In this document: positions 2,823-30,001 of the stretch, in pieces
Position numbering within the stretch: position 1 is the first letter of the stretch
Layout of the letters: each line of letters begins with the position of its first letter
Source of the DNA: a virus
DNA length: 36,240 nucleotides
IMG/VR virus record: IMGVR_UViG_3300025894_000001
Reading direction: 5' to 3' (one strand)
Position numbers and translations under genes: made by a program
The notes under the pieces: model-generated
Told to the model about the DNA's origin: nothing
Seen by the model: the letters and a program-made list of their open reading frames with translations, nothing else
The model's database searches: none

Positions 2823-3689
2823 ATGGCAATTGATCCGGCAACAGCTTACGTTGTCACGACTGCTGTTTCCGCTTTTTTGGGAAATTCAGCAGCCGACGAT
2901 GCAGCTGAACGTGCAATTGAAATTGGAACCGCTAACGCAGAAGATTTAAGAACAATTTCAGTCGCTAACGCTGATGAAGTTGTAAAAGTTGCCGGTCTTA
3001 ATGCCGATGCAATTCTTGCGACGGCGAGCCTTAACGCTGACAGCACATTAAAAATTGCAGAAACGAACTCTCTAGCGTTCCTGACTTCAGCTCGAGAAAA
3101 CATTGATTTAGCCGCAACTGAAAATGTTGAGGTCTTGCGGCGCCACGTTCTTCAGGAAAATGCACTTAGTGGATCGATTCGCGCAGCTGCCGGTGCAAGC
3201 GGTGTTCGTATCGGGGCCGGTTCCCCATTGGAAGTTCTTATCGATGCCGTCGAGCAGGGATATGGTGAGCGTCAATATATGGCGAACTATGCCAAGAAGC
3301 GCATTCAGATGATGGGAAATGAAAGTATTCGAAGAGCATCAATCACCATGATGGATGCCGAGGAAAGAGCAAAGGTGCTTATGGAAACTGCTTCAATGCA
3401 AGCAATGATTACTCGAGAAGAGGGCGCGTCATCAGCTCGAATAATGCTGAACGATGCGGAAGCTAACGCAAGATCAATGGAGCGTGGCGGTGCAGCTTAT
3501 GCCTCAAGCTTGCGAGCCGGCGGTACAGCGACATTGATTAATGGGTTAATGAACGCCGGAAACGCTTATCTTCAGTATGGCTCTCCGAGCGCCGCTTCGC
3601 CGACTGCTTCTTCGCCGGCCTTTATTGGGCCGACAGTTGGCACCTCCGGCGGATATACAGGCGGGTTTTCAGCGGGGTATTCGGGATAA
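2823..3689 (+). CDS. Internal virion protein (gp13/14-like slot)
   Basis: The 288-aa product is Ala-rich and helical, with a Gly/Ser-rich C-terminus. Its stop overlaps the next start as TAATG. Confidence 0.5.
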   Translation: MAIDPATAYVVTTAVSAFLGNSAADDAAERAIEIGTANAEDLRTISVANADEVVKVAGLNADAILATASLNADSTLKIAETNSLAFLTSARENIDLAATENVEVLRRHVLQENALSGSIRAAAGASGVRIGAGSPLEVLIDAVEQGYGERQYMANYAKKRIQMMGNESIRRASITMMDAEERAKVLMETASMQAMITREEGASSARIMLNDAEANARSMERGGAAYASSLRAGGTATLINGLMNAGNAYLQYGSPSAASPTASSPAFIGPTVGTSGGYTGGFSAGYSG

Positions 3690-5575
3690 TGAGAATGCCA
3701 CGTTTTCAATATTCGAGCAGTCCTTCAATGTCGGGCGCCTATTCAAGCCCGGTGTTACGAAGCGCGCCTACGTTACGCACTCCGGCATTACGAAACACAT
3801 CCAAATATTTGCGAGATCCTAGAGCCGGACAGCGCAATATGCAGCTCGAGGTTCAAGCTGAACTGGACAAAGCAAAACCATTTCAAGCTTTAGTCGCCGG
3901 GGCGGGTGAGATTGCCGAGACCTTTTTAAAGGCAGACATGAAAAGCAAGTTGACCGAAGCTGAACTCAATCTTCGGATTACGACTGAAGGATTGCTTGCC
4001 AACATGAAATCCATGCCGGTTGGTGCAGCTTCAACAACGATTGATGGCAAAACAGGCCAACCAGATACGAATTATCGTGCGGTTCACGAAACATCACTTG
4101 CAAGCTTTACCGATGAGTTTTCTCGCCACAGAGAAAAGTTATCCAAAACACTACCTCGGGCAGCAAAAGACCAATTTCTCGCCGGTACAGCTGCATATGT
4201 CGCATCAGCTGAAGCTCAAGCTCAAGCGATCAATCGAAAGCAGCACGTTGCCTATTTGCAAGGCACAGTTTTTAGTAATTTGAGAAAAGCTGAGACTCTT
4301 GCCGAAATCGATATTATTGCCGGCGGTGCTGATGCGAGATTGGTTTACGCGCAAGATGATTTATTGAAGTTAGTAGACGCTCGAAAACGCGAGTTAGCCA
4401 ATGACTACTTTGCGACCACAGTCATCGCAGAAAACACGCAGCTCGGATTAGAGAATCTTGAAAACGTTTTTGCAAATAACAATAGAGAATCTCAGCTTGA
4501 TGATGAAAACGGCGATACGATCCCAATGACAGGCGCTCAAATGAGACAGTTTGAATTTATGGGTCATTTAACCGCAGATGACAAACTTGCGTTCGACACA
4601 AAGATTCAAGCCAAGATTAAACGCTTACAGGCTGAAGACGAGCTTAGAAAAGAATCTAATAAGAACTCAATAATGGGCGAGATTTATAACAATCCTGATC
4701 CAAACGTTTACACCTCTGACGCCTTCACCGCAGCTGCCGCAAGTGGCGAAATTAATTTTGAAGATATTCCTGATCTTGATGCGATAGTTAAAGCGCAAAT
4801 TGTCGCAAGATCGCAAGCTGCTCCTGCAACCGATGTTTCTCTTCAGAATCATATTTTGGACAATATCGGTGATTTTGCTTATCGAACTGAAAGGTTGATG
4901 ACGATGCCTTTGGATCCGAATTTTGCAAAAGAGGCGCTTGAGAAAAGACGAAGATTTGATCAGGGTATTCCAGATTGGAAAGATAAGAACAACCCTGCCG
5001 GTAATAAAGGAGCAAGAGCAAACAGAATTTTCGAAAATGCGTTTTATCGCAAAGATGGTGGTTTTATGGATGCAATCTCAATCTTTTCGCCAGATAGAGT
5101 TGAGCAGCTAAACGACCGTTACTTTATCGCCGCGAAAGAGTTAGATGAGTATGCAAACAACGAGATAGATCTCGCGATGGCTGACTCGGAATACACGTTC
5201 GATGAAGCGTTCGATAACATCTATTTGAAAGCCGAGCAGTTAGCGGAAAAAGAACGTCAATATTCTCAAACCGTTAAACAAGAAAAAGGCGCATTTGATC
5301 TAGCGAAAGATGCCGGCTTCACTGGAAGCACAGGCCAATTTTCTCAATATAACACTTGGTCAAGAAACAATAATCAGTTTACTTTCGACGATGTTCTGCA
5401 AATGGATCCCGGCCCGGCTCGAACTGAAAAAGCAAAAACATTGCAAAGTTTTGGTTGGACTTTTGATGCAAAGTTTTTCGAGGAAAAGCTAGAAACTCAA
5501 ACAGCAGAGGAAAAGTTAAGCACCGTTGAAAAGATTTGGAATGCGGTGAACCCTTTTGCTCCAGAGGATGAATAG
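3689..5575 (+). CDS. Internal virion / ejection protein (gp15-like slot)
   Basis: The 628-aa product looks coiled-coil rich. The call rests on synteny between nozzle and fibre genes. Confidence 0.5.
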   Translation: MRMPRFQYSSSPSMSGAYSSPVLRSAPTLRTPALRNTSKYLRDPRAGQRNMQLEVQAELDKAKPFQALVAGAGEIAETFLKADMKSKLTEAELNLRITTEGLLANMKSMPVGAASTTIDGKTGQPDTNYRAVHETSLASFTDEFSRHREKLSKTLPRAAKDQFLAGTAAYVASAEAQAQAINRKQHVAYLQGTVFSNLRKAETLAEIDIIAGGADARLVYAQDDLLKLVDARKRELANDYFATTVIAENTQLGLENLENVFANNNRESQLDDENGDTIPMTGAQMRQFEFMGHLTADDKLAFDTKIQAKIKRLQAEDELRKESNKNSIMGEIYNNPDPNVYTSDAFTAAAASGEINFEDIPDLDAIVKAQIVARSQAAPATDVSLQNHILDNIGDFAYRTERLMTMPLDPNFAKEALEKRRRFDQGIPDWKDKNNPAGNKGARANRIFENAFYRKDGGFMDAISIFSPDRVEQLNDRYFIAAKELDEYANNEIDLAMADSEYTFDEAFDNIYLKAEQLAEKERQYSQTVKQEKGAFDLAKDAGFTGSTGQFSQYNTWSRNNNQFTFDDVLQMDPGPARTEKAKTLQSFGWTFDAKFFEEKLETQTAEEKLSTVEKIWNAVNPFAPEDE

Positions 5576-13648: not shown

Positions 13649-13918
13649 ATGAAATACGCAATCGTTAACTCTGGCATCGTTGACAACATCATTGAATGGG
13701 ATGGCAGTTCTGAATACAACGTAGACGGCGTTTTTATTGAAGCAGATGCTAACGCATATATCGGCGGTGTTTACGCTGACGGCGCATTTGTAGCACGACC
13801 GCCCGAACCCGAACCAGAACCAACTCAAGCAGATTTAGATCGTCAAAGTGCAAGAGATAAATTGTCCGCACTAGGTCTTTCTGACGCAGAAATTAACGCA
13901 CTGTCAGGAGGTCTGTAA
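13649..13918 (+). CDS. Small fibre-associated protein (possible assembly chaperone), paralog 1
   Basis: The 89-aa product shares IIEWDGS and PEPEPTQADL motifs with 14517..14831 and 15439..15759. It directly follows a fibre gene. Confidence 0.55.
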   Translation: MKYAIVNSGIVDNIIEWDGSSEYNVDGVFIEADANAYIGGVYADGAFVARPPEPEPEPTQADLDRQSARDKLSALGLSDAEINALSGGL

Positions 13919-14517
13919 TGTCCAGTCTACTTAAAGCAAATTCAATATCAGCCGCGACAGGAGCCACGGTCACGATCCCATCAGGCACGACTCTCGACAT
14001 TGCATCGGGTGCGACGATTGCAAACAGTGGAACTGCTTCTGGGTTTAGTAGCGGGTTTGTTTCTTATGCTCTTATTTGCGATCAGAAATCATCAGGCACT
14101 GCCGGAGGCACATTTGCAAATGCTTTGTGGCGAACCAGAGATTTGAATACAAAAATTGCTGACCCCGATGGCATTGTTTCAATTTCAAGCAATCAATTTA
14201 CTCTTGGAGCGGGTTCATATCTTATAAAGTGGTCTGCGCCCGCCGCAAGAGTTGGTAGGCATAAAGCGGCACTTTATGACGTTACAGGAACAGCGTACAT
14301 CGAATATGGAGATGCACGATGGGGTGATACTTATGACGGTGAATCTGATCCTTCGACCGGAATGGCGCGAGTAACTCCTAGCGGGTCTAATGTTTACGAA
14401 ATACGTCACCATTGTGCAACTGGGTACGCAACTTATGGGTTTGGGTTCGAGGGTGGTGCTGATACTGGTAACGTTGTCGAAAAATACACTTTCGTCGAAA
14501 TTTACAAGGAGGCGTAA
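13918..14517 (+). CDS. Receptor-binding fibre protein, paralog A
   Basis: The 199-aa product carries the NSGTASGF linker, then WRTRDLNT..NQFTLGAGSYLI..LYDVTGT. It is colinear with 14828..15436. Confidence 0.65.
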   Translation: MSSLLKANSISAATGATVTIPSGTTLDIASGATIANSGTASGFSSGFVSYALICDQKSSGTAGGTFANALWRTRDLNTKIADPDGIVSISSNQFTLGAGSYLIKWSAPAARVGRHKAALYDVTGTAYIEYGDARWGDTYDGESDPSTGMARVTPSGSNVYEIRHHCATGYATYGFGFEGGADTGNVVEKYTFVEIYKEA

Positions 14518-14831
14518 TGGACATTAGTCTTTGCATTATTCATTTAGGTCTTAACGCCAATCAATATCGATTAAGCCAGTCAAACACTCCGCATGAGATT
14601 ATTGAGTGGAGTGGTTCTGATCCGCAACCAACACAAGCAGAACTAGAAACAGCATGGTCTGAAATTGAACAAAGCGGGTATTTACAAAAAGAAGAAGATT
14701 ATTCAAGAGCAAGAGCCGAAGCATATCCATCTTGGCAAGAACAAATGGACATGATGTTTCACGATCAAACAGAAGGCTCACGCACTTGGTTAGATGCCAT
14801 TGAAGCCGTCAAGGAGGCATATCCAAAATGA
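14517..14831 (+). CDS. Small fibre-associated protein, paralog 2
   Basis: The 104-aa product contains LGLNANQYRL..IIEWSGSDPQPTQAELETAW. It is coupled to both neighbours by ATGA/TAATG overlaps. Confidence 0.55.
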   Translation: MDISLCIIHLGLNANQYRLSQSNTPHEIIEWSGSDPQPTQAELETAWSEIEQSGYLQKEEDYSRARAEAYPSWQEQMDMMFHDQTEGSRTWLDAIEAVKEAYPK

Positions 14832-15436
14832 GTGAAGTAAAAGTTGACACGATCTCCGAAAGAACTTCTGCTAATGGAGTTGTTGTTGATGGGGTCACAA
14901 TTAAGGACAGTGGGCTAACGATTCCTAGTGGTGGAACGATTACTAACAACGGTACGGCTAGTGGGTTTGGGTTATTTACAAGTTATGCAATTATTTACGA
15001 TCAAAAAACAGTAGGTACGAATGGCGGAAGTTTTACATCTGGAGCATGGAGAACAAGAGATTTAAATACTGTTCATGCTGATCCAGATTCAATAGTAACT
15101 CTTTCTGCCAATCAATTTACTTTAGGTGCGGGAACATATTGGATTGAAGCATTTTCAACTGCGGCTTATATTCAACAGCATCAACTTGCAATTTATGATG
15201 TAACTGGAACTACGCTTTATCCCGGAATAAATAATTTTAGTCAAACTGGTGGAGATCATTGGGGATCTGTAATTGTCAGTATGAGACATACTGCTTCTGC
15301 GTCTAATACTTATGAATTGCAACATAGGTGCAGAACCACAAAGACTAGCACTTCTGCGTTTGGCATTTCACATGGTGGTTACTGGTCGGATACTCCAGAC
15401 ATTTATTCCGTAGTTAAAATTTTTAAAGAGGCTTAA
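14828..15436 (+). CDS. Receptor-binding fibre protein, paralog B
   Basis: The 202-aa product contains NNGTASGF..WRTRDLNT..NQFTLGAGTYWI..IYDVTGT. It is visibly more AT-rich than paralog A. Confidence 0.65.
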   Translation: MSEVKVDTISERTSANGVVVDGVTIKDSGLTIPSGGTITNNGTASGFGLFTSYAIIYDQKTVGTNGGSFTSGAWRTRDLNTVHADPDSIVTLSANQFTLGAGTYWIEAFSTAAYIQQHQLAIYDVTGTTLYPGINNFSQTGGDHWGSVIVSMRHTASASNTYELQHRCRTTKTSTSAFGISHGGYWSDTPDIYSVVKIFKEA

Positions 15437-15438
15437 TC

Positions 15439-15759
15439 ATGGATATTAATATTTGCATTAACAGATTAGGTCTTAATGGAAACCGCTACCGACTTAATCA
15501 GTCTAATCCTCCACATTATTTTATTGAGTGGAGTGGATCAGACCCACAACCAACAGAAGCAGAACTGCAATCGGCGTGGGATTCTTATGTTGCCGAACAA
15601 CCCGCTACCCAATACCAACGTGATCGACAGGCAGAGTATCCGTCTATTGACGAATTGATCGTTGCTCTATGGGAAGGCGTGGTCGAAGAACGCATGGCAT
15701 CTGTTACTGCGTTGGAAGCGGATCGACAGGCGGTTAAAACAAAGTATCCGAAACCATGA
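15439..15759 (+). CDS. Small fibre-associated protein, paralog 3
   Basis: The 106-aa product contains LGLNGNRYRL..FIEWSGSDPQPTEAELQSAW. Confidence 0.55.
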   Translation: MDINICINRLGLNGNRYRLNQSNPPHYFIEWSGSDPQPTEAELQSAWDSYVAEQPATQYQRDRQAEYPSIDELIVALWEGVVEERMASVTALEADRQAVKTKYPKP

Positions 15760-17396: not shown

Positions 17397-17610
17397 AGTT
17401 GTTTGGGAAGATATTGCCCAAGATGCGTCTTGGGCGACTGACACAGATTGCGTAACGGTCACTAGCGTCGGCTATCTGGCTGAAGACAGCGAGAAGTATC
17501 TTAAGATAGGTGGGTCAATCACAGAAGATGGAGACATTGCCGGAATTCTCGCTATGCCAAAAGGCTGCGTAATTCTAGTCAAATTTCTGTCGAGAGAATC
17601 GACGCCATAA
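17377..17610 (+). CDS. Hypothetical protein
   Basis: The 77-aa ORF has a GTG start with no clear RBS. It is the only long ORF in this stretch. Confidence 0.4.
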   Translation: MTPRLVEVVWEDIAQDASWATDTDCVTVTSVGYLAEDSEKYLKIGGSITEDGDIAGILAMPKGCVILVKFLSRESTP

Positions 17611-17620
17611 TAGGTGACCC

Positions 17621-17872
17621 ATGAACACCGAAAATTATCCTCAAACTATTTTTGAAACCCCCGGACTCTGCACAACAATAATGAAAATAAACCCGAATCC
17701 CATTCCCCCGGCGGGGCAATTCCATTCGCAGCTAATGAGCGCAAAATCGAAAGCTCAAGTAATCGACATCCTTTGCGCCCGAGGTTCTGCCGCCGGATGG
17801 TTCTCGGATATGCCTGACGGCCTATTCGAGAAACTCGATCAGATGCGTCACACCAAAGGCGAAGCTGCGTAA
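17621..17872 (+). CDS. Hypothetical protein (last gene before attP)
   Basis: The 83-aa ORF starts with ATG. Confidence 0.5.
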   Translation: MNTENYPQTIFETPGLCTTIMKINPNPIPPAGQFHSQLMSAKSKAQVIDILCARGSAAGWFSDMPDGLFEKLDQMRHTKGEAA

Positions 17873-17873
17873 A

Positions 17874-17897
17874 AGTTGTGACCAAAGTTGTGACCAA
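17874..17897 (+). repeat. Tandem 2 x AGTTGTGACCAA, putative integrase arm-type sites (P arm)
   Basis: An exact 24-nt copy lies at 18091..18114 in the same orientation, on the other side of the tRNA-like core. Confidence 0.7.
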
Positions 17898-17991
17898 AAT
17901 AGAACAACCCCAAGCAGCTCCAAGCAGCTCTAAGCAGTTGCAACTCCTAGACAGTCGCAAAAAACACTGTAATAATAGACTCCGGCAGGAA

Positions 17992-18037
17992 CTTGCCAAG
18001 GTTGGGGTCGCGAGTTCGAATCTCGTTTCCCGCTCCA
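17992..18037 (+). other. attP core: 3' portion of tRNA-Gly(GCC), from the anticodon loop to CCA
   Basis: The sequence is CTTGCCAAGGTTGGGGTCGCGAGTTCGAATCTCGTTTCCCGCTCCA. From memory it matches enterobacterial tRNA-Gly(GCC) almost exactly. There is no matching 5' half (GCGGGAA..) upstream, so this is not a full tRNA gene. Confidence 0.8.
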
Positions 18038-18090
18038 TTAAATCAATGACTTACGTCTGATCTGTATTAGTGGTTTCTGATATAGACCCC

Positions 18091-18114
18091 AGTTGTGACC
18101 AAAGTTGTGACCAA
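18091..18114 (+). repeat. Tandem 2 x AGTTGTGACCAA, putative arm-type sites (P' arm)
   Basis: It is identical to 17874..17897. Confidence 0.7.
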
Positions 18115-18123
18115 ATCAGGCAT

Positions 18124-18156
18124 AAAAAAACGGACGTTGCTTAGCAACGTCCGTTT
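18124..18156 (-). terminator. Rho-independent terminator downstream of int
   Basis: A 13-bp stem (AAACGGACGTTGC / GCAACGTCCGTTT) with a 3-nt loop is followed by a T-run on the minus strand. Confidence 0.85.
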
Positions 18157-18170
18157 CGAGGGGGGTGCTT

Positions 18171-19334
18171 CTAAGCTCTTCGAGCGGTAAGACTGACCAC
18201 GTTACTGACAGCAGCTTCAGTTCTGGTTCTGGTTTGTTCCATCTTATCCATCTCGACCCATTCGTAGTCCTCGGGAACGTCGAGATACCGGAGAGTGGTT
18301 TCAAGCTTTGAATGCCCGGCCCATTTCATTGCCAGATGGATGGCAACGCCGTTGTTGACGCAATCGCTGATGAAGGTGTGCCTCAGTCCGTGAAGCGTTC
18401 CGCTCGATTTGATTCCGGCTGCTGACTTATCCACTTTAAAGACTTTCGACCAACGATCCTCCCGCCAATCAGGTAAAAGACGATCACCGGGGAGGTTAAG
18501 GGTTAGGATCTCAAAATAGGCCGCTAGAGCGTCTGAATTGAGCGGTATCGAACGAGCTTTGCCGGTCTTGGTATCCATCCCTTCTTCGAGATCGTGATCC
18601 ACTAGCACCCTTCTTTTATGGTTAGAGCCGATTATGTCTTGCTTTCGAAGGTTGGAAAGCTCTTTGCGGCGAAGCCCGGTGTTAGCGATGAATTTCCAAA
18701 AAGCAGCGTGGGCGGGGTTTACTTTATAAAGCTTGTCTAACTCGGCGGCGGTGAAGATCTTGATCTTTTTCTTGACGGTCTTTGAATTGGATGCGATCAC
18801 CAGTTCGCCGACCGGTGAGGTCTGACAAAGATTCCATCGGTTGCCTTCCTTCTTGCCACCGGTACGAGCTGCCCGGTAAAGCGAGGCTTTGATGTCCTTC
18901 CATTCGTCTTTCACGGTTTCTGGTGAGACCACCTTTAGGCGGTCGACTTGCCAAGCGTTGAACGCGGTATTCCAAAGATCAATCGTCGCAACATCATCTG
19001 CAATGGTTAGATTGCCGAAGTAGGGAAGCGCCGTTTTGCAGTGCCGTGTAAAGTGTTCGTGACCGGCTGCGCTGTAAACTGTTGCGCGCCATGTCAGAAG
19101 CTGCGGGAGAAATTCAGAATAGGTCATCACACGTTTCGGTCGAGCTGCCGGCTCGATAACAGCAATGCCGGATTTGGCAAGCTGCTCTTTTGCTTCCCAC
19201 TCTTTGCAAACTTCTTCAGCTTGTTTCTTGGTCATGCGTGAAGCTGACCCCAAATATTTTACTCTAGGCAGAAGGTTGGTTTTGAGCCACCAGTACCCTT
19301 TGCCTTTACGCTCGTCAATATAAACACTTGCCAT
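18171..19334 (-). CDS. int: Tyrosine recombinase (phage integrase)
   Basis: The 387-aa product carries the C-terminal catalytic signature HGLRHTF..W.GH....T..YL and an upstream R in LRRKEL. It lies adjacent to attP. Confidence 0.9.
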   Translation of the reverse strand: MASVYIDERKGKGYWWLKTNLLPRVKYLGSASRMTKKQAEEVCKEWEAKEQLAKSGIAVIEPAARPKRVMTYSEFLPQLLTWRATVYSAAGHEHFTRHCKTALPYFGNLTIADDVATIDLWNTAFNAWQVDRLKVVSPETVKDEWKDIKASLYRAARTGGKKEGNRWNLCQTSPVGELVIASNSKTVKKKIKIFTAAELDKLYKVNPAHAAFWKFIANTGLRRKELSNLRKQDIIGSNHKRRVLVDHDLEEGMDTKTGKARSIPLNSDALAAYFEILTLNLPGDRLLPDWREDRWSKVFKVDKSAAGIKSSGTLHGLRHTFISDCVNNGVAIHLAMKWAGHSKLETTLRYLDVPEDYEWVEMDKMEQTRTRTEAAVSNVVSLTARRA

Positions 19335-19555
19335 TAACTTGCCTCCGGTAATTGTCTCTCAAGCATTCTGTAGGCCAATACAAGTTCCGTGTAATGTTCC
19401 CACCTATCTAGGTCATCAGCATCAGCGCCGACTCCTGAGTCTTTCAAGAATTCAAGGCTTCGCTCTTGCATCTTTATTGCGGATTCGAGAACCCACATTC
19501 CGGATTGAGCCGAATCAGCCTCAGTCACTCCCTGCTTTAATACTAAAGTTCTCAT
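19334..19555 (-). CDS. Small acidic hypothetical protein
   Basis: The junction GGAGGCAAGTTAATG precedes the start. Its stop overlaps the int start. Confidence 0.55.
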   Translation of the reverse strand: MRTLVLKQGVTEADSAQSGMWVLESAIKMQERSLEFLKDSGVGADADDLDRWEHYTELVLAYRMLERQLPEAS

Positions 19556-19740
19556 TAACTTGCCTCCATTGCTTCGAGCTTGAAAGACATTTCGAACATC
19601 CGGTCGACCGCGTCCCAAAGGATTAAGTGCAACTTATCGTTCGGGTTCTCCAAATAATTTTCGCGGTAGTCATCAATCGCTTCTTCGATCTCCGAAAGCG
19701 CCCGGAGATCAAGGTCTTTTTCGACGTTGCTTCTTTTCAT
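19555..19740 (-). CDS. Small acidic hypothetical protein
   Basis: The 61-aa product is coupled to both neighbours. Confidence 0.55.
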   Translation of the reverse strand: MKRSNVEKDLDLRALSEIEEAIDDYRENYLENPNDKLHLILWDAVDRMFEMSFKLEAMEAS

Positions 19741-20048
19741 TTTTTCTCCTCTTTTTTTAAGTTGATCGTGGTGGTTTCTAAGATGTCAATATCAATTAAG
19801 TGTCCGTCATTGTTGCCATAGTCTTCATAAAATCGGCGCTCTTTAACAATGTCGAGCTGTACCGCGTCATCTTCTGAATCTATCCAAGGGCTGCCGTCAT
19901 CTTCTTCAATAGCTTTTTCAATAAGTTTTATCTGCTTTTTGACATCGGATAATTTCTGACAAAAATCAAGGTCGATGATGTCGCCGTCTTTATTGATCCA
20001 TTCGAACTTCCATTCGGTCGCTTGCGTTTTTTTGTGTTTCATTGCCAT
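19737..20048 (-). CDS. Acidic hypothetical protein, probably translated from a leaderless mRNA
   Basis: The ATG at 20048 lies 6 nt after a TATTAT -10 element. The product is rich in D/E. Confidence 0.5.
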   Translation of the reverse strand: MAMKHKKTQATEWKFEWINKDGDIIDLDFCQKLSDVKKQIKLIEKAIEEDDGSPWIDSEDDAVQLDIVKERRFYEDYGNNDGHLIDIDILETTTINLKKEEKK

Positions 20049-20054
20049 ATCTGC

Positions 20055-20084
20055 ATAATAGGGCATTGCCCTAGTTACCGTCAA
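20055..20084 (-). promoter_or_regulatory. Leftward promoter with an embedded palindromic operator
   Basis: On the minus strand it reads TTGACG, an 18-nt spacer, then TATTAT. The spacer and -10 contain TAGGGCA-A-TGCCCTA (20059..20073). Confidence 0.6.
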
Positions 20085-20113
20085 CTATTAATTGATAGTG
20101 GTCTGACCAAAAT

Positions 20114-20344
20114 TTAGATTTGTTTTTCTCCGAGCTTTATCTTGAGCAGCTCGAGATAGCCGGGTGGCATGGTGCGGTGGGATGAGACATCGGGCGACTT
20201 GCGCCACGACTCCACGGTGCCGCGCTCGACGAGACACAGCTCGGCGATGGCCTGAGTAGTCAGGCCATGCTTCTTGATTAGACGCATCAGCGTCGAGCGA
20301 GATTTCGCGGTCATAGGCCGCAGTGTAACTTTGGACGCTGTCAT
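20114..20344 (-). CDS. HTH DNA-binding protein
   Basis: The 76-aa product contains LTTQAIAELCLVERGTVESW, a helix-turn-helix pattern. Confidence 0.6.
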   Translation of the reverse strand: MTASKVTLRPMTAKSRSTLMRLIKKHGLTTQAIAELCLVERGTVESWRKSPDVSSHRTMPPGYLELLKIKLGEKQI

Positions 20345-20347
20345 TTT

Positions 20348-20596
20348 TCAATTCACCCATTTCCAACCCGGAGCCGGGGCAAGTCCATCAAGCTCGGTCG
20401 TATCCGAAATTGTGATCTTTTTGTAGTCAGAGAGTCGAACGTCACCGAGTTCGGTTTCGTATCCGTACACCACCGCTTCAGCAAGATCCGGATCGTTATG
20501 ATCGTAATCCGTAACGTAGACCTCCCAGAAATTTTTGAGGATGATGTGTCGCACCACGTTCACGGTGCCAATTCCATTTTCACTTTCCATTTTCAT
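20348..20596 (-). CDS. Hypothetical protein
   Basis: A GAGG site lies 8 nt upstream of the ATG. The product is 82 aa. Confidence 0.6.
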   Translation of the reverse strand: MKMESENGIGTVNVVRHIILKNFWEVYVTDYDHNDPDLAEAVVYGYETELGDVRLSDYKKITISDTTELDGLAPAPGWKWVN

Positions 20597-21100
20597 TTAA
20601 GCTGCCTCGTTGGTTTCAATTTTCATCTTTTCTGCAATGCCGTCTTCGGCGAACTCTTTAGGGCGATGTTTATTTTCGGCCCTGATGATTGAGTTCATTT
20701 CTTCAATCGCATCGTTGACCGACCCGGCAAACTGTTCAGGACTTTGAAGATCGAGGTTAGTAAGGTTCGTCCAATCCTTTCGAAGCCCGGCGACTCGCGA
20801 CCGGTTACGGTCGTTCCATCGAATGTTTACTTCAAGAACTTTGTTGTCACCGGTGAAACTACTGCCAAGATGAATTTCATAAAGGTATTCGATGTCGCCG
20901 TGAATCCCACTGGTGATCTCGTAGTTTTCATCACTCGCGAAACTAACAAGAAGTTCATTCTTTGTTATCATATTTAGCTGCGCGTCGATAAGTTTTTGAG
21001 CAATGTCTTTGCCGGTCTCGGCAAGATAGCCGTCCCAATGACGGTAGAAAATTACCCGGGTTTTGCCATCTAGAATTACGATGTTTGATCTAGTACTCAT
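20597..21100 (-). CDS. Hypothetical protein
   Basis: A GAGGAA RBS precedes the start. The 167-aa product is the first gene downstream of the promoter at 21136..21171. Confidence 0.65.
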   Translation of the reverse strand: MSTRSNIVILDGKTRVIFYRHWDGYLAETGKDIAQKLIDAQLNMITKNELLVSFASDENYEITSGIHGDIEYLYEIHLGSSFTGDNKVLEVNIRWNDRNRSRVAGLRKDWTNLTNLDLQSPEQFAGSVNDAIEEMNSIIRAENKHRPKEFAEDGIAEKMKIETNEAA

Positions 21101-21135
21101 TCTGTTCCTCGGTTGTTGTTTACTGCCATGACTGC

Positions 21136-21171
21136 AGTATGGGGCTTTGCCCTACATAGGTCAATGCCCTA
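21136..21171 (-). promoter_or_regulatory. Leftward promoter with two operator copies
   Basis: On the minus strand it reads TTGACC, a 17-nt spacer, then CATACT. Operator TAGGGCATTGACCTA (21157..21171) overlaps the -35. The degenerate copy TAGGGCAAAGCCCCA (21140..21154) lies in the spacer. Confidence 0.55.
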
Positions 21172-21189
21172 TCACAACTGGTCAGACCA

Positions 21190-21363
21190 TCAAGCAGAAA
21201 GGTGCTTTTCTATAGCGGAAACTAGGTCTGTTTTGCGGTACAGCTTTTTCCCCATGAAAGGGAAAGTCGGGATGCCAAGCTTTCGGCGGTTCCTGATGAA
21301 GTGCGTGTAAGACATCCGGCAATACTCCGCAGCTTCTTTGCCGGTCAGGTAGTCATTACTCAT
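21190..21363 (-). CDS. Small HTH protein (excisionase/MerR-like)
   Basis: The 57-aa product contains YLTGKEAAEYCRMSYTHFIRN..IPTFPF. The start forms an ATGA overlap with the upstream gene. Confidence 0.5.
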   Translation of the reverse strand: MSNDYLTGKEAAEYCRMSYTHFIRNRRKLGIPTFPFMGKKLYRKTDLVSAIEKHLSA

Positions 21364-21629
21364 ACAACATAAACCGGCGTCACAAAGCGATTGGTTACCC
21401 GGCACTTGCGCTTCTGAGCTTCTTTAACCTTGCCGGATTTTTTCAATCCATTCACGCGACCTGACACTGCGTTGATTTCAAGACCGGTCAAACGGCTGAT
21501 CTCTTTAAGGGTCATGTCTTCAGTGAACATCGACTCGCCGAGACACGCGAGGATTTGATCTTCTTGTTTGAGCGTAACGCCGGCTTGTTTGATTTGGCGG
21601 TACACCACGGTGCTTGTATTTCTTGGCAT
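21360..21629 (-). CDS. Winged-helix DNA-binding protein
   Basis: An AGGAG RBS precedes the start. The product contains MTLKEISRLTGLEINAVSGRVNGLKKSGKV. Confidence 0.55.
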   Translation of the reverse strand: MPRNTSTVVYRQIKQAGVTLKQEDQILACLGESMFTEDMTLKEISRLTGLEINAVSGRVNGLKKSGKVKEAQKRKCRVTNRFVTPVYVV

Positions 21630-21639
21630 GGTTGATCTC

Positions 21640-22797
21640 CTAAAATGGGATGTCATCGTCAAAGGGAACGCCGTTGTCAGGCGGCTTGACCTCGAGGATC
21701 TCTGCGCCGGGCGTGAACGCTGCCATAGCTGTCAGGTAGTGCGTATCGTTGACGAGCTTGTCAGGGTCGAGCCACTGCAAGTCTTTTGAAGTAAAGTCGC
21801 GATCGCTCCAGTTGTTTAATTCGCAATTGGTAAAGGTTTGATCACCACCATCGAACTGATAGGTGATTCGGTTTCTTTCCTTGTCCATCTCTTTCACGGT
21901 CGCCCACGGAATCAGGTCAGGCTTGAACAAATGTTTCGGGCAACCTTTCTTCTGGTCCTTCATGCTGATCTTTTTGTTGTGGAACTCGCAGCGCCAAACA
22001 CCGAAGTCTTTTGTTTCCATTGTGTCGGGGTCGACCACTGGTGTTGAGTGCGCGCACGTTCGACAGTTTGCTTTGGCTGTTTTCTTCTCATGGCAAAGCT
22101 CGCTAAACTGACACCACTTACACTGAAAAAATTCGGGGTCTTCCGAAAGGCGGGGCGGCAGCTCGTTAGCTTTCAACAGCCTTGATGCTTTCTCGAACGC
22201 CTCGAGGAAATCTTTCTTGTTGAAGTTGGTGCGAACACTGATCATGTCTCGACCGCCGGCAGTGCAGCAGACTAGGTAATGCCGTTTGAGTTTGGTCAAT
22301 CCCATGTAGAGCTGCGCTTGGGTGTAATAAACCTTTGACCATTCTTTCAGTGCTTCTTTCTCGCCATGCTTCACGAGCAGCCGCTCGAGCTTACGCATCC
22401 GCGCATCGCCCACGCATTTGACCTCATAAACGTGCCAAGTCTTTGGCGCTTCCAGAAGTCCCAAAACAAGTCCGTCGAGGTGACCGCGCAGATGCCCGGA
22501 CAAACTCGCCACGCCCCATTGCCGTCCGTCTGGCCCGAAGGGGCGAAGGTCGACACCGGGTGTTGCTTTGAATCGTTTGTTAGTGAGATCCTCGGTTCGG
22601 TGTCCGTCATCAAACTTCATCAAGGTCGATGCCGGGTGAATCTCTTGGGACGCCCACCAAAATTGATATTGGAGCTGTCGCTCGCAACTAGATCCAAGAC
22701 CGCTACATTGAACATATCCACGCAGCTCGGTGTGATGATCTTTTTGCATCTGATCCATCACCGCCGCGATTGTCGGGTACTCGTTGACTAATGCCAT
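21640..22797 (-). CDS. Cas4/RecB-like PD-(D/E)XK exonuclease with an extra Cys/His-rich C-terminal extension and an SSB-type DDDIPF tail
   Basis: The nuclease motifs are HLDG..YEVK and QAQLY. An N-terminal Cys plus CKWCQFSELC gives C-x2-C-x5-C. A second cluster reads CRTC..C..H..C..H. The final residues FDDDIPF are encoded at 21643..21660. Confidence 0.75.
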   Translation of the reverse strand: MALVNEYPTIAAVMDQMQKDHHTELRGYVQCSGLGSSCERQLQYQFWWASQEIHPASTLMKFDDGHRTEDLTNKRFKATPGVDLRPFGPDGRQWGVASLSGHLRGHLDGLVLGLLEAPKTWHVYEVKCVGDARMRKLERLLVKHGEKEALKEWSKVYYTQAQLYMGLTKLKRHYLVCCTAGGRDMISVRTNFNKKDFLEAFEKASRLLKANELPPRLSEDPEFFQCKWCQFSELCHEKKTAKANCRTCAHSTPVVDPDTMETKDFGVWRCEFHNKKISMKDQKKGCPKHLFKPDLIPWATVKEMDKERNRITYQFDGGDQTFTNCELNNWSDRDFTSKDLQWLDPDKLVNDTHYLTAMAAFTPGAEILEVKPPDNGVPFDDDIPF

Positions 22798-24893: not shown

Positions 24894-24916
24894 AAAAAAC
24901 CGGCCCAAAGGCCGGT
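24894..24916 (-). terminator. Terminator after the repressor gene
   Basis: The stem is ACCGGCC/GGCCGGT with a 4-nt loop, followed by a T-run on the minus strand. Confidence 0.75.
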
Positions 24917-24939
24917 TTCTAATAGGTCAGGCTAGGGCG

Positions 24940-25293
24940 TCAGCTGCCGTTTCCGACCTTATCAAGCTCGGCAACCAAGCGCCTTGCATCCTCATTTGTG
25001 TTGCGGAAAGTGTCGATCAGGTCTTGTACTTCGATCCGTTGGGCGGGGGTCAGTCCCGACAATTGATCGGTGTCACTTGAGGTGCGTTGCACACCCTCGA
25101 ACAACCAAGACTCGGTCGTTTCCAAAACTTCTGCGAGCTTCTTTGAGTTTTCCCTCGAGATCGATTTGATCTCACCGGACTCCCAATGCTGCGCGGTGGG
25201 TTGTGACACGCCACAACGTTTTGCAAGCTCTGTTTTTGTCAGACCCAAAGCAAGTCGTTTTTCTTTGAGCCGCTCATGCCAAGTGGCGCTCAT
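24940..25293 (-). CDS. Short XRE/cI-like repressor without a peptidase domain
   Basis: The HTH reads LGLTKTELAKRCGVSQPTAQHWESG. The product is 117 aa if it starts at the ATG at 25293. Alternative starts at 25332 and 25368 are possible. Confidence 0.75.
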   Translation of the reverse strand: MSATWHERLKEKRLALGLTKTELAKRCGVSQPTAQHWESGEIKSISRENSKKLAEVLETTESWLFEGVQRTSSDTDQLSGLTPAQRIEVQDLIDTFRNTNEDARRLVAELDKVGNGS

Positions 25294-25407
25294 GTCGCAC
25301 CCCCGGTCATGCAGCTGTATAACTTGTCCCATCTTCTTGTACTCGATTTTGTGTTCATTTTTTCTCACGGTTTTTTTATAGCCGGAATTCCGAAACGGCT
25401 TTGTTGT

Positions 25408-25884
25408 TTACCCTGACTGCGAAAGCGTCCACCAATGTGGCGCGCCAAATCGGTCAAAAGTTTCATCAGAATATTCGTGCTGTTGCACGAGCATCTTAAG
25501 TTCGAGTGCCGCAAGCGGCGTCCATCCTTTCAATGCGCGAAGTTGCCAACAGCGTGACCATTGCAAATTAAAAAGTTGTGCGCGGTTTGTTTCTACTTGA
25601 AGTGCCGGTTGTGATTTTTCTAAACCAAAGAAAATTTCTTTCTGTTCGCGCTCGGTACGATGTCCAGCCCATCCGCTTTCAATATCCTCAGTCGTTGCGC
25701 GACCGACGGCGGTGGTGTTGCCTTTGGAACATCCAAGCGGAGCGGAGGGAGGGCAATGGATGTGGTGCCAAAATTCGGGCGGGAAAACCCCGCGTTTTTT
25801 GACGTGCCAATTTTTTTTGCTGATTGAAAGACCGGAAATTGTGAGGTAAATATTTTTCAGCGGTTTTTTGGTTAATTTATTCAT
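25408..25884 (-). CDS. Unknown 158-aa protein encoded between cro and the repressor gene
   Basis: The ORF is on the repressor strand, upstream of it. I recognised no family. It has a His/Cys patch, WHHIHCPPSAPLGC. An alternative ATG lies at 25926. Confidence 0.55.
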   Translation of the reverse strand: MNKLTKKPLKNIYLTISGLSISKKNWHVKKRGVFPPEFWHHIHCPPSAPLGCSKGNTTAVGRATTEDIESGWAGHRTEREQKEIFFGLEKSQPALQVETNRAQLFNLQWSRCWQLRALKGWTPLAALELKMLVQQHEYSDETFDRFGAPHWWTLSQSG

Positions 25885-25885
25885 G

Positions 25886-25960
25886 TAGGCAAGCCTAACA
25901 CATAATAGGTAAATGTTTGCAAACATTATTCAACTTGCATTTAGAAATAGGGTCGCCTAT
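25886..25960. promoter_or_regulatory. Operator cluster of the immunity switch
   Basis: The cluster contains TAGGCAAGCCTA (25886..25897), the perfect 16-bp palindrome AATGTTTGCAAACATT (25912..25927) and ATAGGGTCGCCTAT (25947..25960). Confidence 0.6.
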
Positions 25961-25963
25961 TAT
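25935..25963 (+). promoter_or_regulatory. Putative PR-like promoter for cro
   Basis: It reads TTGCAT, a 17-nt spacer, then TATTAT. An operator lies in the spacer. The cro ATG is only 7 nt after the -10. Confidence 0.6.
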
Positions 25964-25970
25964 CCGGCCT

Positions 25971-26162
25971 ATGAACGTGATCAAGACCGAAACCCCGAGC
26001 GCATCCGAAATCATTGATCGGATTGGTGGCACAGCTGCTGTTGCGGAGCTTTGCGAAGTCAAATCGCCGTCCGTCAGTGAATGGCGGCACAAGGGGATTC
26101 CAAAGGCCAGATTGCAGTTTTTGCGCCTTGCACGACCTGATGTCTTCAGAACAAACGCCTGA
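25971..26162 (+). CDS. Cro/YdaS-like HTH protein
   Basis: The 63-aa product contains GGTAAVAELCEVKSPSVSEWRHKGIPKARL. It is divergent from the repressor gene. Confidence 0.7.
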   Translation: MNVIKTETPSASEIIDRIGGTAAVAELCEVKSPSVSEWRHKGIPKARLQFLRLARPDVFRTNA

Positions 26163-29373: not shown

Positions 29374-29398
29374 AAAAAAAAAGAGGGCCGAAGCCCTC
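29374..29398 (-). terminator. Rho-independent terminator of the leftward two-gene cassette
   Basis: The stem is GAGGGC/GCCCTC with a 4-nt loop, followed by T9 on the minus strand. Confidence 0.75.
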
Positions 29399-29425
29399 CT
29401 GAGAAGTTTGTTTTTAAGTCCTAAT

Positions 29426-29710
29426 CTATTGCGGTTGCCGCTTAAAGCCCCAGAGGTAATCCCATCCCGAGCGGGTCAGTTCGACCTCGTGGAAGTTGTA
29501 GTTGATCCGACCAGTGGCTGGATCGAGCCAACCCCAAGACTCTGGGCGGACATACCGAATCAGTCCGCGAGTCAGCATCGACTTGAGCACCGCGGGGTGA
29601 TGGCCTCCGCACTTGATCCCCACCTGCAACTTGGCGCTCGTGCGGTCTCGGCGGTGGCGCATGGCGACCTCGGAGATGAGGACGGTTTGGTTAAAGGTTA
29701 GGTTTGGCAT
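29426..29710 (-). CDS. Hypothetical protein (cassette gene 2)
   Basis: The 94-aa ORF starts with ATG and is followed by a terminator. Confidence 0.55.
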   Translation of the reverse strand: MPNLTFNQTVLISEVAMRHRRDRTSAKLQVGIKCGGHHPAVLKSMLTRGLIRYVRPESWGWLDPATGRINYNFHEVELTRSGWDYLWGFKRQPQ

Positions 29711-29730
29711 GGTGCCTCCGGTTGGTTGGG

Positions 29731-29940
29731 TTAGATTTTGTTTCTGTATTTTCTGGTGATTAGGTTTCTGATCTGGTAGTCATCGTCCTCGATGTGTCCG
29801 AGGTTGCTATGGTTGATCACAATCTGCTTAACCATTTCCGCTTCAGCCTTTGTTCCAAATGCGCTGACCAGATAAAAGGCTGCTTCGCTATGGTAGTTCT
29901 GGTCGATCATGTCGTTGTATTGTGTTGCGTTGAATGTCAT
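29731..29940 (-). CDS. Hypothetical protein (cassette gene 1)
   Basis: The 69-aa ORF starts with ATG and lies downstream of the promoter at 29973..30001. Confidence 0.55.
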   Translation of the reverse strand: MTFNATQYNDMIDQNYHSEAAFYLVSAFGTKAEAEMVKQIVINHSNLGHIEDDDYQIRNLITRKYRNKI

Positions 29941-29972: not shown

Positions 29973-30001
29973 ACTGTAGGGCAATGTCCTAGCTATGTCA
30001 A
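29973..30001 (-). promoter_or_regulatory. Leftward promoter with an embedded operator
   Basis: On the minus strand it reads TTGACA, a 17-nt spacer, then TACAGT. The spacer and -10 contain TAGGACATTGCCCTA (29977..29991). Confidence 0.6.

Follow-up and report, generated by a model that had tools for sequence, protein, structure and literature searches.

Small DNA-binding regulators that act at their own promoters are known from several mobile elements. The controller (C) proteins of restriction-modification (R-M) systems are dimeric XRE-type regulators of about 75 aa; each controls its own synthesis, in a way that depends on its concentration, from a pair of neighbouring palindromes at its promoter. 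In phages P2 and P4, the proteins Cox and Vis are dual-function excisionase-regulators. In anti-CRISPR-associated (Aca) operons, an inverted repeat lies in the core promoter, often with a second one, and scrambling the repeat relieves repression (PMC9410906). One Aca may also control neighbouring operons, including an operon with a Mom homologue, as was predicted or shown in 2026 (PMC13551039). Here, we analyse a stretch of 36,240 nt from the IMG/VR virus record IMGVR_UViG_3300025894_000001 (the window, to whose full length all coordinates refer unless a relative is named), which is a temperate phage genome or prophage. It carries the palindrome TAGGGCANTGCCCTA (TAGGGCA-N-TGCCCTA) inside three leftward promoters, which we call P_int, P_mid and P3. 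These palindromes are probably the operators of a small XRE-type helix-turn-helix (HTH) protein of 76 aa encoded next to one of them (20114..20344, minus strand), hereafter HTH-76.

The search of the whole window with up to two mismatches identified four sites, when 0.04 are expected by chance, and none of 100 shuffled sequences gave four. Allowing three mismatches added no further site. The copies are those listed in the original prediction: a perfect one at 20059..20073 (O_int, TAGGGCATTGCCCTA), two with one mismatch at 21157..21171 (O2, TAGGTCAATGCCCTA) and 29977..29991 (O3, TAGGGCAATGTCCTA), and one with two mismatches at 21140..21154 (O1, TGGGGCTTTGCCCTA). The half-site TAGGGCA is found five times in the window, always within the palindromes. 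A symmetrised weight matrix gives the four sites scores of 19.7-25.5 bits, with the next best position at 7.6, and because the matrix was derived from the same four sites only this gap in scores is informative.

All four palindromes fall within promoters that were identified independently of them. A mechanical scan for sigma-70-like consensus elements returned the three minus-strand promoters exactly as they had been proposed, i.e., P_int (20055..20084, TTGACG-18-TATTAT, 10 out of 12 consensus matches), P_mid (21136..21164, TTGACC-17-CATACT), and P3 (29973..30001, TTGACA-17-TACAGT, also 10 out of 12). The geometry that had been proposed for the sites was recovered too. O_int and O3 occupy the 3' part of the spacer and overlap the -10 element, as does O1 in P_mid, and O2, whose centre is 17 bp from that of O1, contains the -35 hexamer. 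Read on the transcribed strand, the -10 of all three promoters begins with the two bases that end a palindrome. None of the three contains sites of the ATAGG-N4-CCTAT type, which characterise the immunity region of this phage (see below). The transcription starts that we discuss are predicted from these promoters, and those of P_mid and P3 would lie near 21129 and 29966. That of P_int, at about 20048, coincides with the ATG of the first gene, which is not preceded by a Shine-Dalgarno sequence, and this gene may therefore be translated from a leaderless mRNA.

To assess conservation, we collected related loci. An exact-pattern scan of viral contigs gave 28 loci, of which only two are related to the window, one (L008) from the same phage and one (L021) from a relative; the others are chance matches in unrelated DNA. 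L021 and two further loci (L031 and L034) have about 70% DNA identity to the window. In these loci, the promoter that follows a gene for an HTH_17 protein has a copy with one mismatch over its -35, and the promoter that follows the small HTH gene has a perfect copy in its spacer and -10 (TTGCAT-17-TATACT in the L021 counterpart of P_int). The genes behind each promoter differ: these loci lack the 167-aa gene that comes first in the P_mid operon of the window, and they have an unrelated zinc-finger gene before the integrase gene (int). Another locus (L061), whose HTH protein is 78% identical to that of the window, has a promoter immediately behind the HTH gene, TTGACT-17-TATACT, that contains a perfect copy, and L053 has the variant TGGGGCATTGCCCCA at the position of O_int. 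The position and register of O2 are the same in L031, L034, and L053. In near-identical strains, the substitutions in the P_mid region lie only just outside the two 15-mers. The gene order is the same in all recovered relatives: a Cas4-like exonuclease, a winged-helix (wHTH) gene that may be missing, the HTH_17 gene, the promoter, variable cargo, the 76-aa HTH gene, and int. When sorted into the nine groups described below, all have a comparable operator-in-promoter layout; the promoter equivalent to P_mid has a tandem pair of palindromes in six groups and one clear palindrome in the other three.

The sequence following the -10 is also shared between promoters (N6 then ATGG; window 20040-20060 and 21100-21135, L061 630-667), and the P_mid leader of the window, ATGGCAGTAAACAACAAC, recurs behind P_int of L061. 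These two observations suggest that promoter, operator, and leader form a portable module. The promoter-operator part has been copied to three places in this genome, which is a mildly unusual feature. The window also has a second short palindrome, TGGTC-N-GACCA, with two perfect copies and no more, at 20099-20109 and 21179-21189 (0.83 expected with up to one mismatch). The first is just 3' of the stop codon of HTH-76, at 27 nt upstream of O_int, and the second just 3' of that of HTH_17, with a distance to O2 of only 7 nt. L021 retains this palindrome (1633-1643), with the operator 24 nt further downstream, and L061 has a copy with one mismatch (about 577-587) some 26 nt upstream of its operator. 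It is absent from L053 and from P3, and it resembles an integrase arm repeat of the window (TGACCAAA). In four other groups (B, D, E, and G), the operator promoter and the first gene are separated by about 150 nt of conserved leader (L051 3850-4000, L056 9760-9905, L039 1290-1440, L046 4040-4215, L059 8775-8925), with a mean identity of 74% across groups. This leader, which is not found in the window, has several hairpins, of which a long one stands just before the ribosome-binding site, and six of its pairs show compensatory changes. It matches no Rfam family and may, by analogy with the Aca-bound 5' UTR motifs (PMC13551039), be an element of translational control.

The comparison of the relatives suggests which protein reads the operator. 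We sorted the homologues of HTH-76 by recognition helix and inspected the promoter of each HTH operon. This resulted in nine groups. Group A (helix type ERGTVESWRK; the window, L021, and L061) has TAGGGCA-N-TGCCCTA, and group A' (ELGTVQCWRK; L053) has TGGGGCA-N-TGCCCCA, a symmetric change of A to G and T to C in both arms that is present at both P_mid and P_int. Group B (SHGTVRKWRQ; the three independent loci L035, L036, and L051) has a tandem pair of TACCC-N5-GGGTA, 18 bp apart. The remaining groups have a pair of TGTACA-N-TGTACA (C; L032, L041, L044), TGCACA-N-TGTGCA with a neighbouring copy (D; L039, L040, L056), ATAGTAT-N3-ATACTAT (E; L046, L047), a pair of ATAGCA-N5-TGCTAT (F; L057), TAGCATA-N-TATGCTA (G; L059), and GTACACA-N-TGTGTAC (H; L058). 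When all motifs were cross-scanned against all loci, the resulting matrix was essentially diagonal; each motif was read from the loci that it scores, and the independent tests are only the replicates within groups A, B, C, and D, with three loci each. HTH-76 is strongly conserved outside the recognition helix, and its variation is concentrated in this helix and the loop that follows. L061 has three substitutions in the helix relative to the window, but R41 and E45 are not among them, and its operator is still of class A; in L053, both residues are changed and so is the operator. We predict that positions 41 and 45 of the protein read base 2 of the half-site. The co-variation of helix and operator, like the placement of the sites in promoters and their conservation, is directly observed. 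Conservation and co-variation support the view that the palindrome is the site of a dimeric repressor, as had been proposed.

HTH-76 itself is poorly represented in databases. It matches phrog_7950 ("transcriptional repressor", E = 2e-7) in PHROGs and, below threshold, only HTH_23 in Pfam; all of its 195 database homologues are unnamed or "hypothetical", and a tblastn search of deposited phages returned no match. AF2 models it with four helices (pLDDT 79); the HTH spans residues 30-48 and the C-terminal helix residues 61-70. The closest structures found with Foldseek are C.Esp1396I, C.BclI, C.AhdI, Aca10, Aca1, and HipB (TM 0.6-0.7), with TM values to Aca1 and Aca10 that are no better than those to the C proteins, and a library of viral structures returned generic XRE regulators. 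At the sequence level, the best match of the family profile to a solved structure is Aca3 (9vt3; E ~1e-3, 22 bits), once matches to TAL effectors, which are repeat artefacts, and one uncharacterised Listeria regulator are set aside. The alignment extends past the HTH and includes a W-x11-MP pattern. We take this weak match as a lead and not as evidence of membership. The protein is basic (pI 10.3), and we infer from its palindromic sites that it acts as a dimer.

The three promoters precede three sets of mostly small genes on the minus strand. P_mid is followed by abutting open reading frames (ORFs) for proteins of 167 aa (20597..21100, pI 5.0) and 82 aa (20348..20596, pI 4.4), and then by HTH-76, which is thus the last gene of the operon that it would control, as in all relatives. 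The 82-aa gene is retained in L021, which lacks the 167-aa gene. For the 167-aa protein, the structure predicted by AF2 (pLDDT 68) gave no match in a fold comparison, and the contexts of its homologues are uninformative. P_int is followed by overlapping or abutting ORFs (18171..20048) for three acidic proteins (pI 4.4-4.7) of 103 aa (19737..20048), 61 aa (19555..19740), and about 73-94 aa (19334..19618), with the tyrosine integrase (18171..19334) as the last gene. In L021 and L053, a single unrelated small gene replaces the three small ones. The original prediction placed an int-proximal unit in the regulon. This can be refined: the unit includes the integrase gene itself, which would thereby belong to the regulon; this is another mildly unusual feature. 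P3 lies 9 kb away, beside the terminase genes, and precedes genes for proteins of 69 aa (29731..29940) and 94 aa (29426..29710), followed by a terminator-like hairpin (29381..29400). The 94-aa protein is basic, an exception among cargo proteins that are otherwise mostly acidic (pI 4.4-5.8 in the window).

The grouping of these three units in one regulon, also part of the original prediction, is supported by the shared sites and, for P3, by the context of the 94-aa gene in another phage. In L051, a homologue with 77% identity comes first after the class-B operator promoter, and hence this gene stands behind an operator promoter in both phages, which ties the P3 cassette to the regulon independently. 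In each case, the operator is of the type of the resident HTH protein, class A in the window and class B in L051, and we regard this as the best evidence that P3 belongs to the regulon. O3 is identical in the near-identical contigs L048 and L049, and a tblastn search of deposited phages with the 94-aa protein gave no match. The L051 operon encodes, in order, the 94-aa homologue, a Mom-family protein (4343-4969; PF25680, 28.9 bits for a cut-off of 27.1), the HTH protein, and the integrase. Proteins of the Mom family have functions of the DNA modification and anti-restriction type.

Together, these results lead us to propose, with a probability of about 0.65, that the palindromes are operators for a dimer of HTH-76 that represses its own operon, P_int, and P3. 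Since the operators overlap the -10 elements of strong sigma-70-type promoters, and the additional one at P_mid overlaps the -35, a bound dimer would exclude RNA polymerase. Because the promoters are strong, housekeeping-like, and devoid of CI-type sites, they should fire without phage activators. HTH-76 would be made from P_mid and by read-through from the early leftward promoter. As it accumulates, it would occupy O1/O2, O_int, and O3 and block the polymerase, resulting in negative autoregulation through two adjacent sites at P_mid and in repression of the three small acidic proteins and the integrase at P_int, and of the 69-aa and 94-aa proteins at P3. Entry or induction would then cause a burst of expression followed by shut-down, i.e., a pulse of cargo, HTH-76, and integrase, and the lysogen would maintain a low, self-limited level. 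Binding, repression, their timing, and an anti-defence role of the cargo are what we infer from the sequence. The circuit is most likely real and of a fairly ordinary type among phages, an autorepressor akin to Aca or to C proteins.

The arrangement is that of Aca systems. In both, the operon consists of variable small genes with a small HTH gene at its end, its near-consensus promoter has an inverted repeat in the core, often with a second one beside it, and the motif recurs before other accessory operons. The Mom-family cargo of L051, the predicted fold of HTH-76, close to Aca1 and Aca10, and the weak sequence match to Aca3 go in the same direction. The differences are that the cargo of the window includes no identified Acr or other anti-defence protein, that the regulon includes the integrase, that the synteny of the HTH gene and int extends through the family, and that one regulated cassette is 9 kb away beside terminase genes instead of adjacent. 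C.Esp1396I, C.AhdI, and C.BclI are the top structural matches of HTH-76, and the O2/O1 pair has the arrangement of an XRE dimer on tandem palindromes at its own gene. However, identity to C proteins is only 15-20%, the C-box sequences are unrelated, and there are no restriction or methylase genes nearby: a scan of the genes at 19334-22797 and 29426-29940 identified no R-M domain. All sites described here overlap core promoter elements, which suggests pure repression and not the activation followed by repression of C proteins. The system also resembles those in which a small int-linked DNA-binding protein controls promoters that affect integrase expression, such as Apl of phage 186 (PMC7498355), or the control of intS by IntS and TorI in KplE1 (PMC2951348). 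The dual-function excisionase-regulators differ in that they bind arrays of direct repeats and att sites, whereas here the sites are palindromes in promoters. Finally, palindromes over the -35 and -10 of early promoters and an XRE-type HTH dimer are reminiscent of lambdoid CI and Cro, but this phage has a separate CI/Cro region with its own operators, and the TAGGGCA system controls accessory genes and int instead of the promoters of the lysis-lysogeny switch.

The rest of the genome gives the setting of the circuit. The phage is temperate and marine, and near-identical and related contigs come from marine metagenomes. Its rightward late genes occupy 1-17.6 kb and resume at 30.0 kb, and a long early operon, oriented leftward, extends from about 24.85 kb to int. 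The immunity region encodes a CI-like HTH repressor (24940..25368, minus strand) and a Cro-like protein (25917..26162, plus strand), and carries ATAGG-N4-CCTAT operators at the leftward early promoter (24834, perfect; 24849; 24868) and between the divergent CI-side and Cro-side genes (25885; 25947, perfect). It contains no TAGGGCA palindrome, even with up to three mismatches. The two types of operators are thus distinct, as had been claimed, and the TAGGGCA sites of P_int and P_mid, 3.7-5 kb away, do not flank the repressor gene as lambdoid sites do. A terminator-like hairpin lies at about 24900-24921, 3' of the CI-like gene, and an unassigned ORF of 158-172 aa (25408..25926) separates this gene from the divergent promoter. 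Among the late genes, 13918-14517 (199 aa) and 14828-15436 (202 aa) are diverged tandem paralogues, with 66-74% DNA identity between 14008-14220 and 14930-15139 and between 14498-14657 and 15417-15579. An Rfam scan of the window gave no family at the gathering score, and a near-identity search of deposited phages with 18-31 kb gave no match. A family-profile scan of contigs in 185,579 species genomes gave a single match, L052 (JAAESJ010000544.1, 2.6 kb), from a Verrucomicrobiaceae metagenome-assembled genome (MAG). Its context is rearranged and it has no usable operator, and it is a weak hint on the host. More distant homologues of HTH-76 carry names from Gammaproteobacteria or "Proteobacteria" MAGs.

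Next to int there is an attP-like region (17874-18115) with tandem direct repeats, GTTGTGACCAAA twice at 17874-17898 and again at 18091-18115, and between them a 3' tRNA fragment (about 17999-18040), with no complete tRNA according to ARAGORN. The repeats are probably integrase arm-type sites around a tRNA-derived core. The region has neither the palindrome nor its half-site. The arm repeats of the L021 lineage differ and were also found in L054 (2787-2810), where they follow a solo homologue of HTH-76 in a bacterial chromosomal context. We considered this locus, with TAGGGCAA beside a class-A-like protein, as independent support for the operator, and rejected it because the copies are direct repeats with a period of 12 bp that are identical to the L021-type arm sites. 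In L063 (700-725), the HTH gene follows int and ends in a terminator-like CCGGGGCATTGCCCCGG with a T-run; the stem is the class-A' palindrome sequence, and two arm repeats TTAGGGGGACA come next.

Several observations weigh against repression by HTH-76 as we propose it. The cargo has no usable match in Pfam, PHROGs, NCBIfam, or PDB sequences, and none of its proteins matches a known anti-defence protein. P3 was seen only in near-identical contigs, the similarity to Aca3 is marginal, and the cross-scan is in part circular. In most relatives, the HTH gene abuts or overlaps the start of int, the classic position of an excisionase, and the arm repeats of the L021 lineage (TTGCCCTACAAA, 3217-3245 and 3421-3445) contain the half-site TGCCCTA. 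Lastly, most relative contigs are only a few kb long, which leaves room for a co-varying binder encoded elsewhere. Such a binder, acting on real operators, would be a regulator from outside the short contigs, the HTH_17 protein (21190..21405), or the wHTH protein (21360..21662). The genes of the last two lie just upstream of P_mid, in an order kept in all relatives, and HTH_17 also varies between groups. Yet, its changes do not follow the operator, because the operator is constant within groups A and B, whereas HTH_17 is not the same in the window as in L021, nor in L051 as in L035/L036. The recognition segment of the wHTH, LTLKEISRLTGLEINAVSGRVNG, is identical in the window and in L051 and L035 despite their different operators, and neither gene belongs to the operon controlled by the tandem sites. 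Hence, of the three small HTH proteins originally named as candidates, the one at 20114..20344 co-varies with the operator and the other two do not track it, and we consider another binder unlikely. It is less likely still that HTH-76 is mainly the excisionase, or recombination directionality factor (RDF), of the adjacent integrase, with the palindromes serving recombination control or reflecting a side activity, as for 186 Apl, P2 Cox, and P4 Vis. HTH-76 is small, basic, and close to int, with three genes and P_int between the two in the window, and the pairing persists in L058 with a different type of integrase. However, a separate excisionase-type gene, HTH_17, is present. An RDF typically binds direct repeats within att that are spaced by a helical turn (PMC7498355), whereas the palindromes are in promoters at least 1.9 kb from attP, one of them 12 kb away, and the half-site TAGGGCA is absent from 17600-18200. 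The half-sites in the L021 arms could be due to chance, to autoregulation by Int, or to an RDF role of the HTH protein in that lineage; a search across phages for matches between arm repeats and operators found none beyond L021 and L054. The roles of excisionase and repressor are not mutually exclusive.

The same arm repeats bear on the idea that a host transcription factor or the arm-binding domain of the integrase binds the palindrome, given that the L021-type arm sites and the operator share the 8-mer TTGCCCTA. But the window and L021 have the same operator with different arm repeats (GTTGTGACCAAA versus TTGCCCTACAAA) and integrases that are only 50% identical, and in other groups arm repeats bear no relation to operators. 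Moreover, the operator changes among close relatives in step with a phage protein, which is not expected of a host factor. We find either binder very improbable. Even less credit is due to the binding of the TAGGGCA sites by the CI-like repressor, in spite of the outer TAGG/CCTA common to both types of sites and of the match of both CI-like protein and HTH-76 to phrog_7950. The half-sites of the TAGGGCA palindrome are 3 bp further apart than those of the CI sites, its inner GCA-N-TGC is conserved when the N4 centre of the CI sites is free, the window has no such palindrome in its immunity region, and in L056, L057, and L059 the operator motif of P_mid is likewise absent from that region. The last alternative, an RNA hairpin acting in processing, stability, or termination of read-through leftward transcripts, draws on the terminator-like element of L063 and on the perfect copy, which folds on paper into a 6-bp stem with a 3-nt loop (-9.2 kcal/mol, z = -1.6). 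The original prediction had excluded any useful hairpin; this was too strict for the perfect copy, but its conclusion that the palindrome is not a hairpin element stands. The mismatched copies do not fold (z = -0.2 and -1.4), no copy is followed by a T-run, the register relative to -35 and -10 is fixed, and O3 is outside any evident leftward transcript. We reject this role because the mismatches are not compensatory.

If HTH-76 is the repressor, then a motif noticed by eye leads to a circuit that can be tested, in which the regulator gene is named, three promoters are its targets, and a code of specificity is predicted. The autorepressor, the palindrome in the core promoter, and the control of several operons by one regulator are already established, and therefore the gain is incremental; an integrase that belongs to a self-limiting, Aca-like regulon would add modestly to what is known on how temperate phages time Int synthesis. 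Since this HTH family has no annotated member and no match in deposited phages, its proposed operators mark accessory cassettes of marine phages that are beyond the reach of homology searches. More speculatively, and with the odds against it in our view, the int-linked 76-aa HTH proteins might constitute an undescribed Aca-like family of uncultured marine temperate phages, with at least nine operator specificities, where a portable module tags accessory (possibly anti-defence) cassettes and gates the integrase. The window would then show this module copied to three places, including beside the terminase genes, and counter-defence and the capacity to integrate would be tied together in one self-limiting burst after entry. 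The operator would also become a handle to search for new anti-defence genes.

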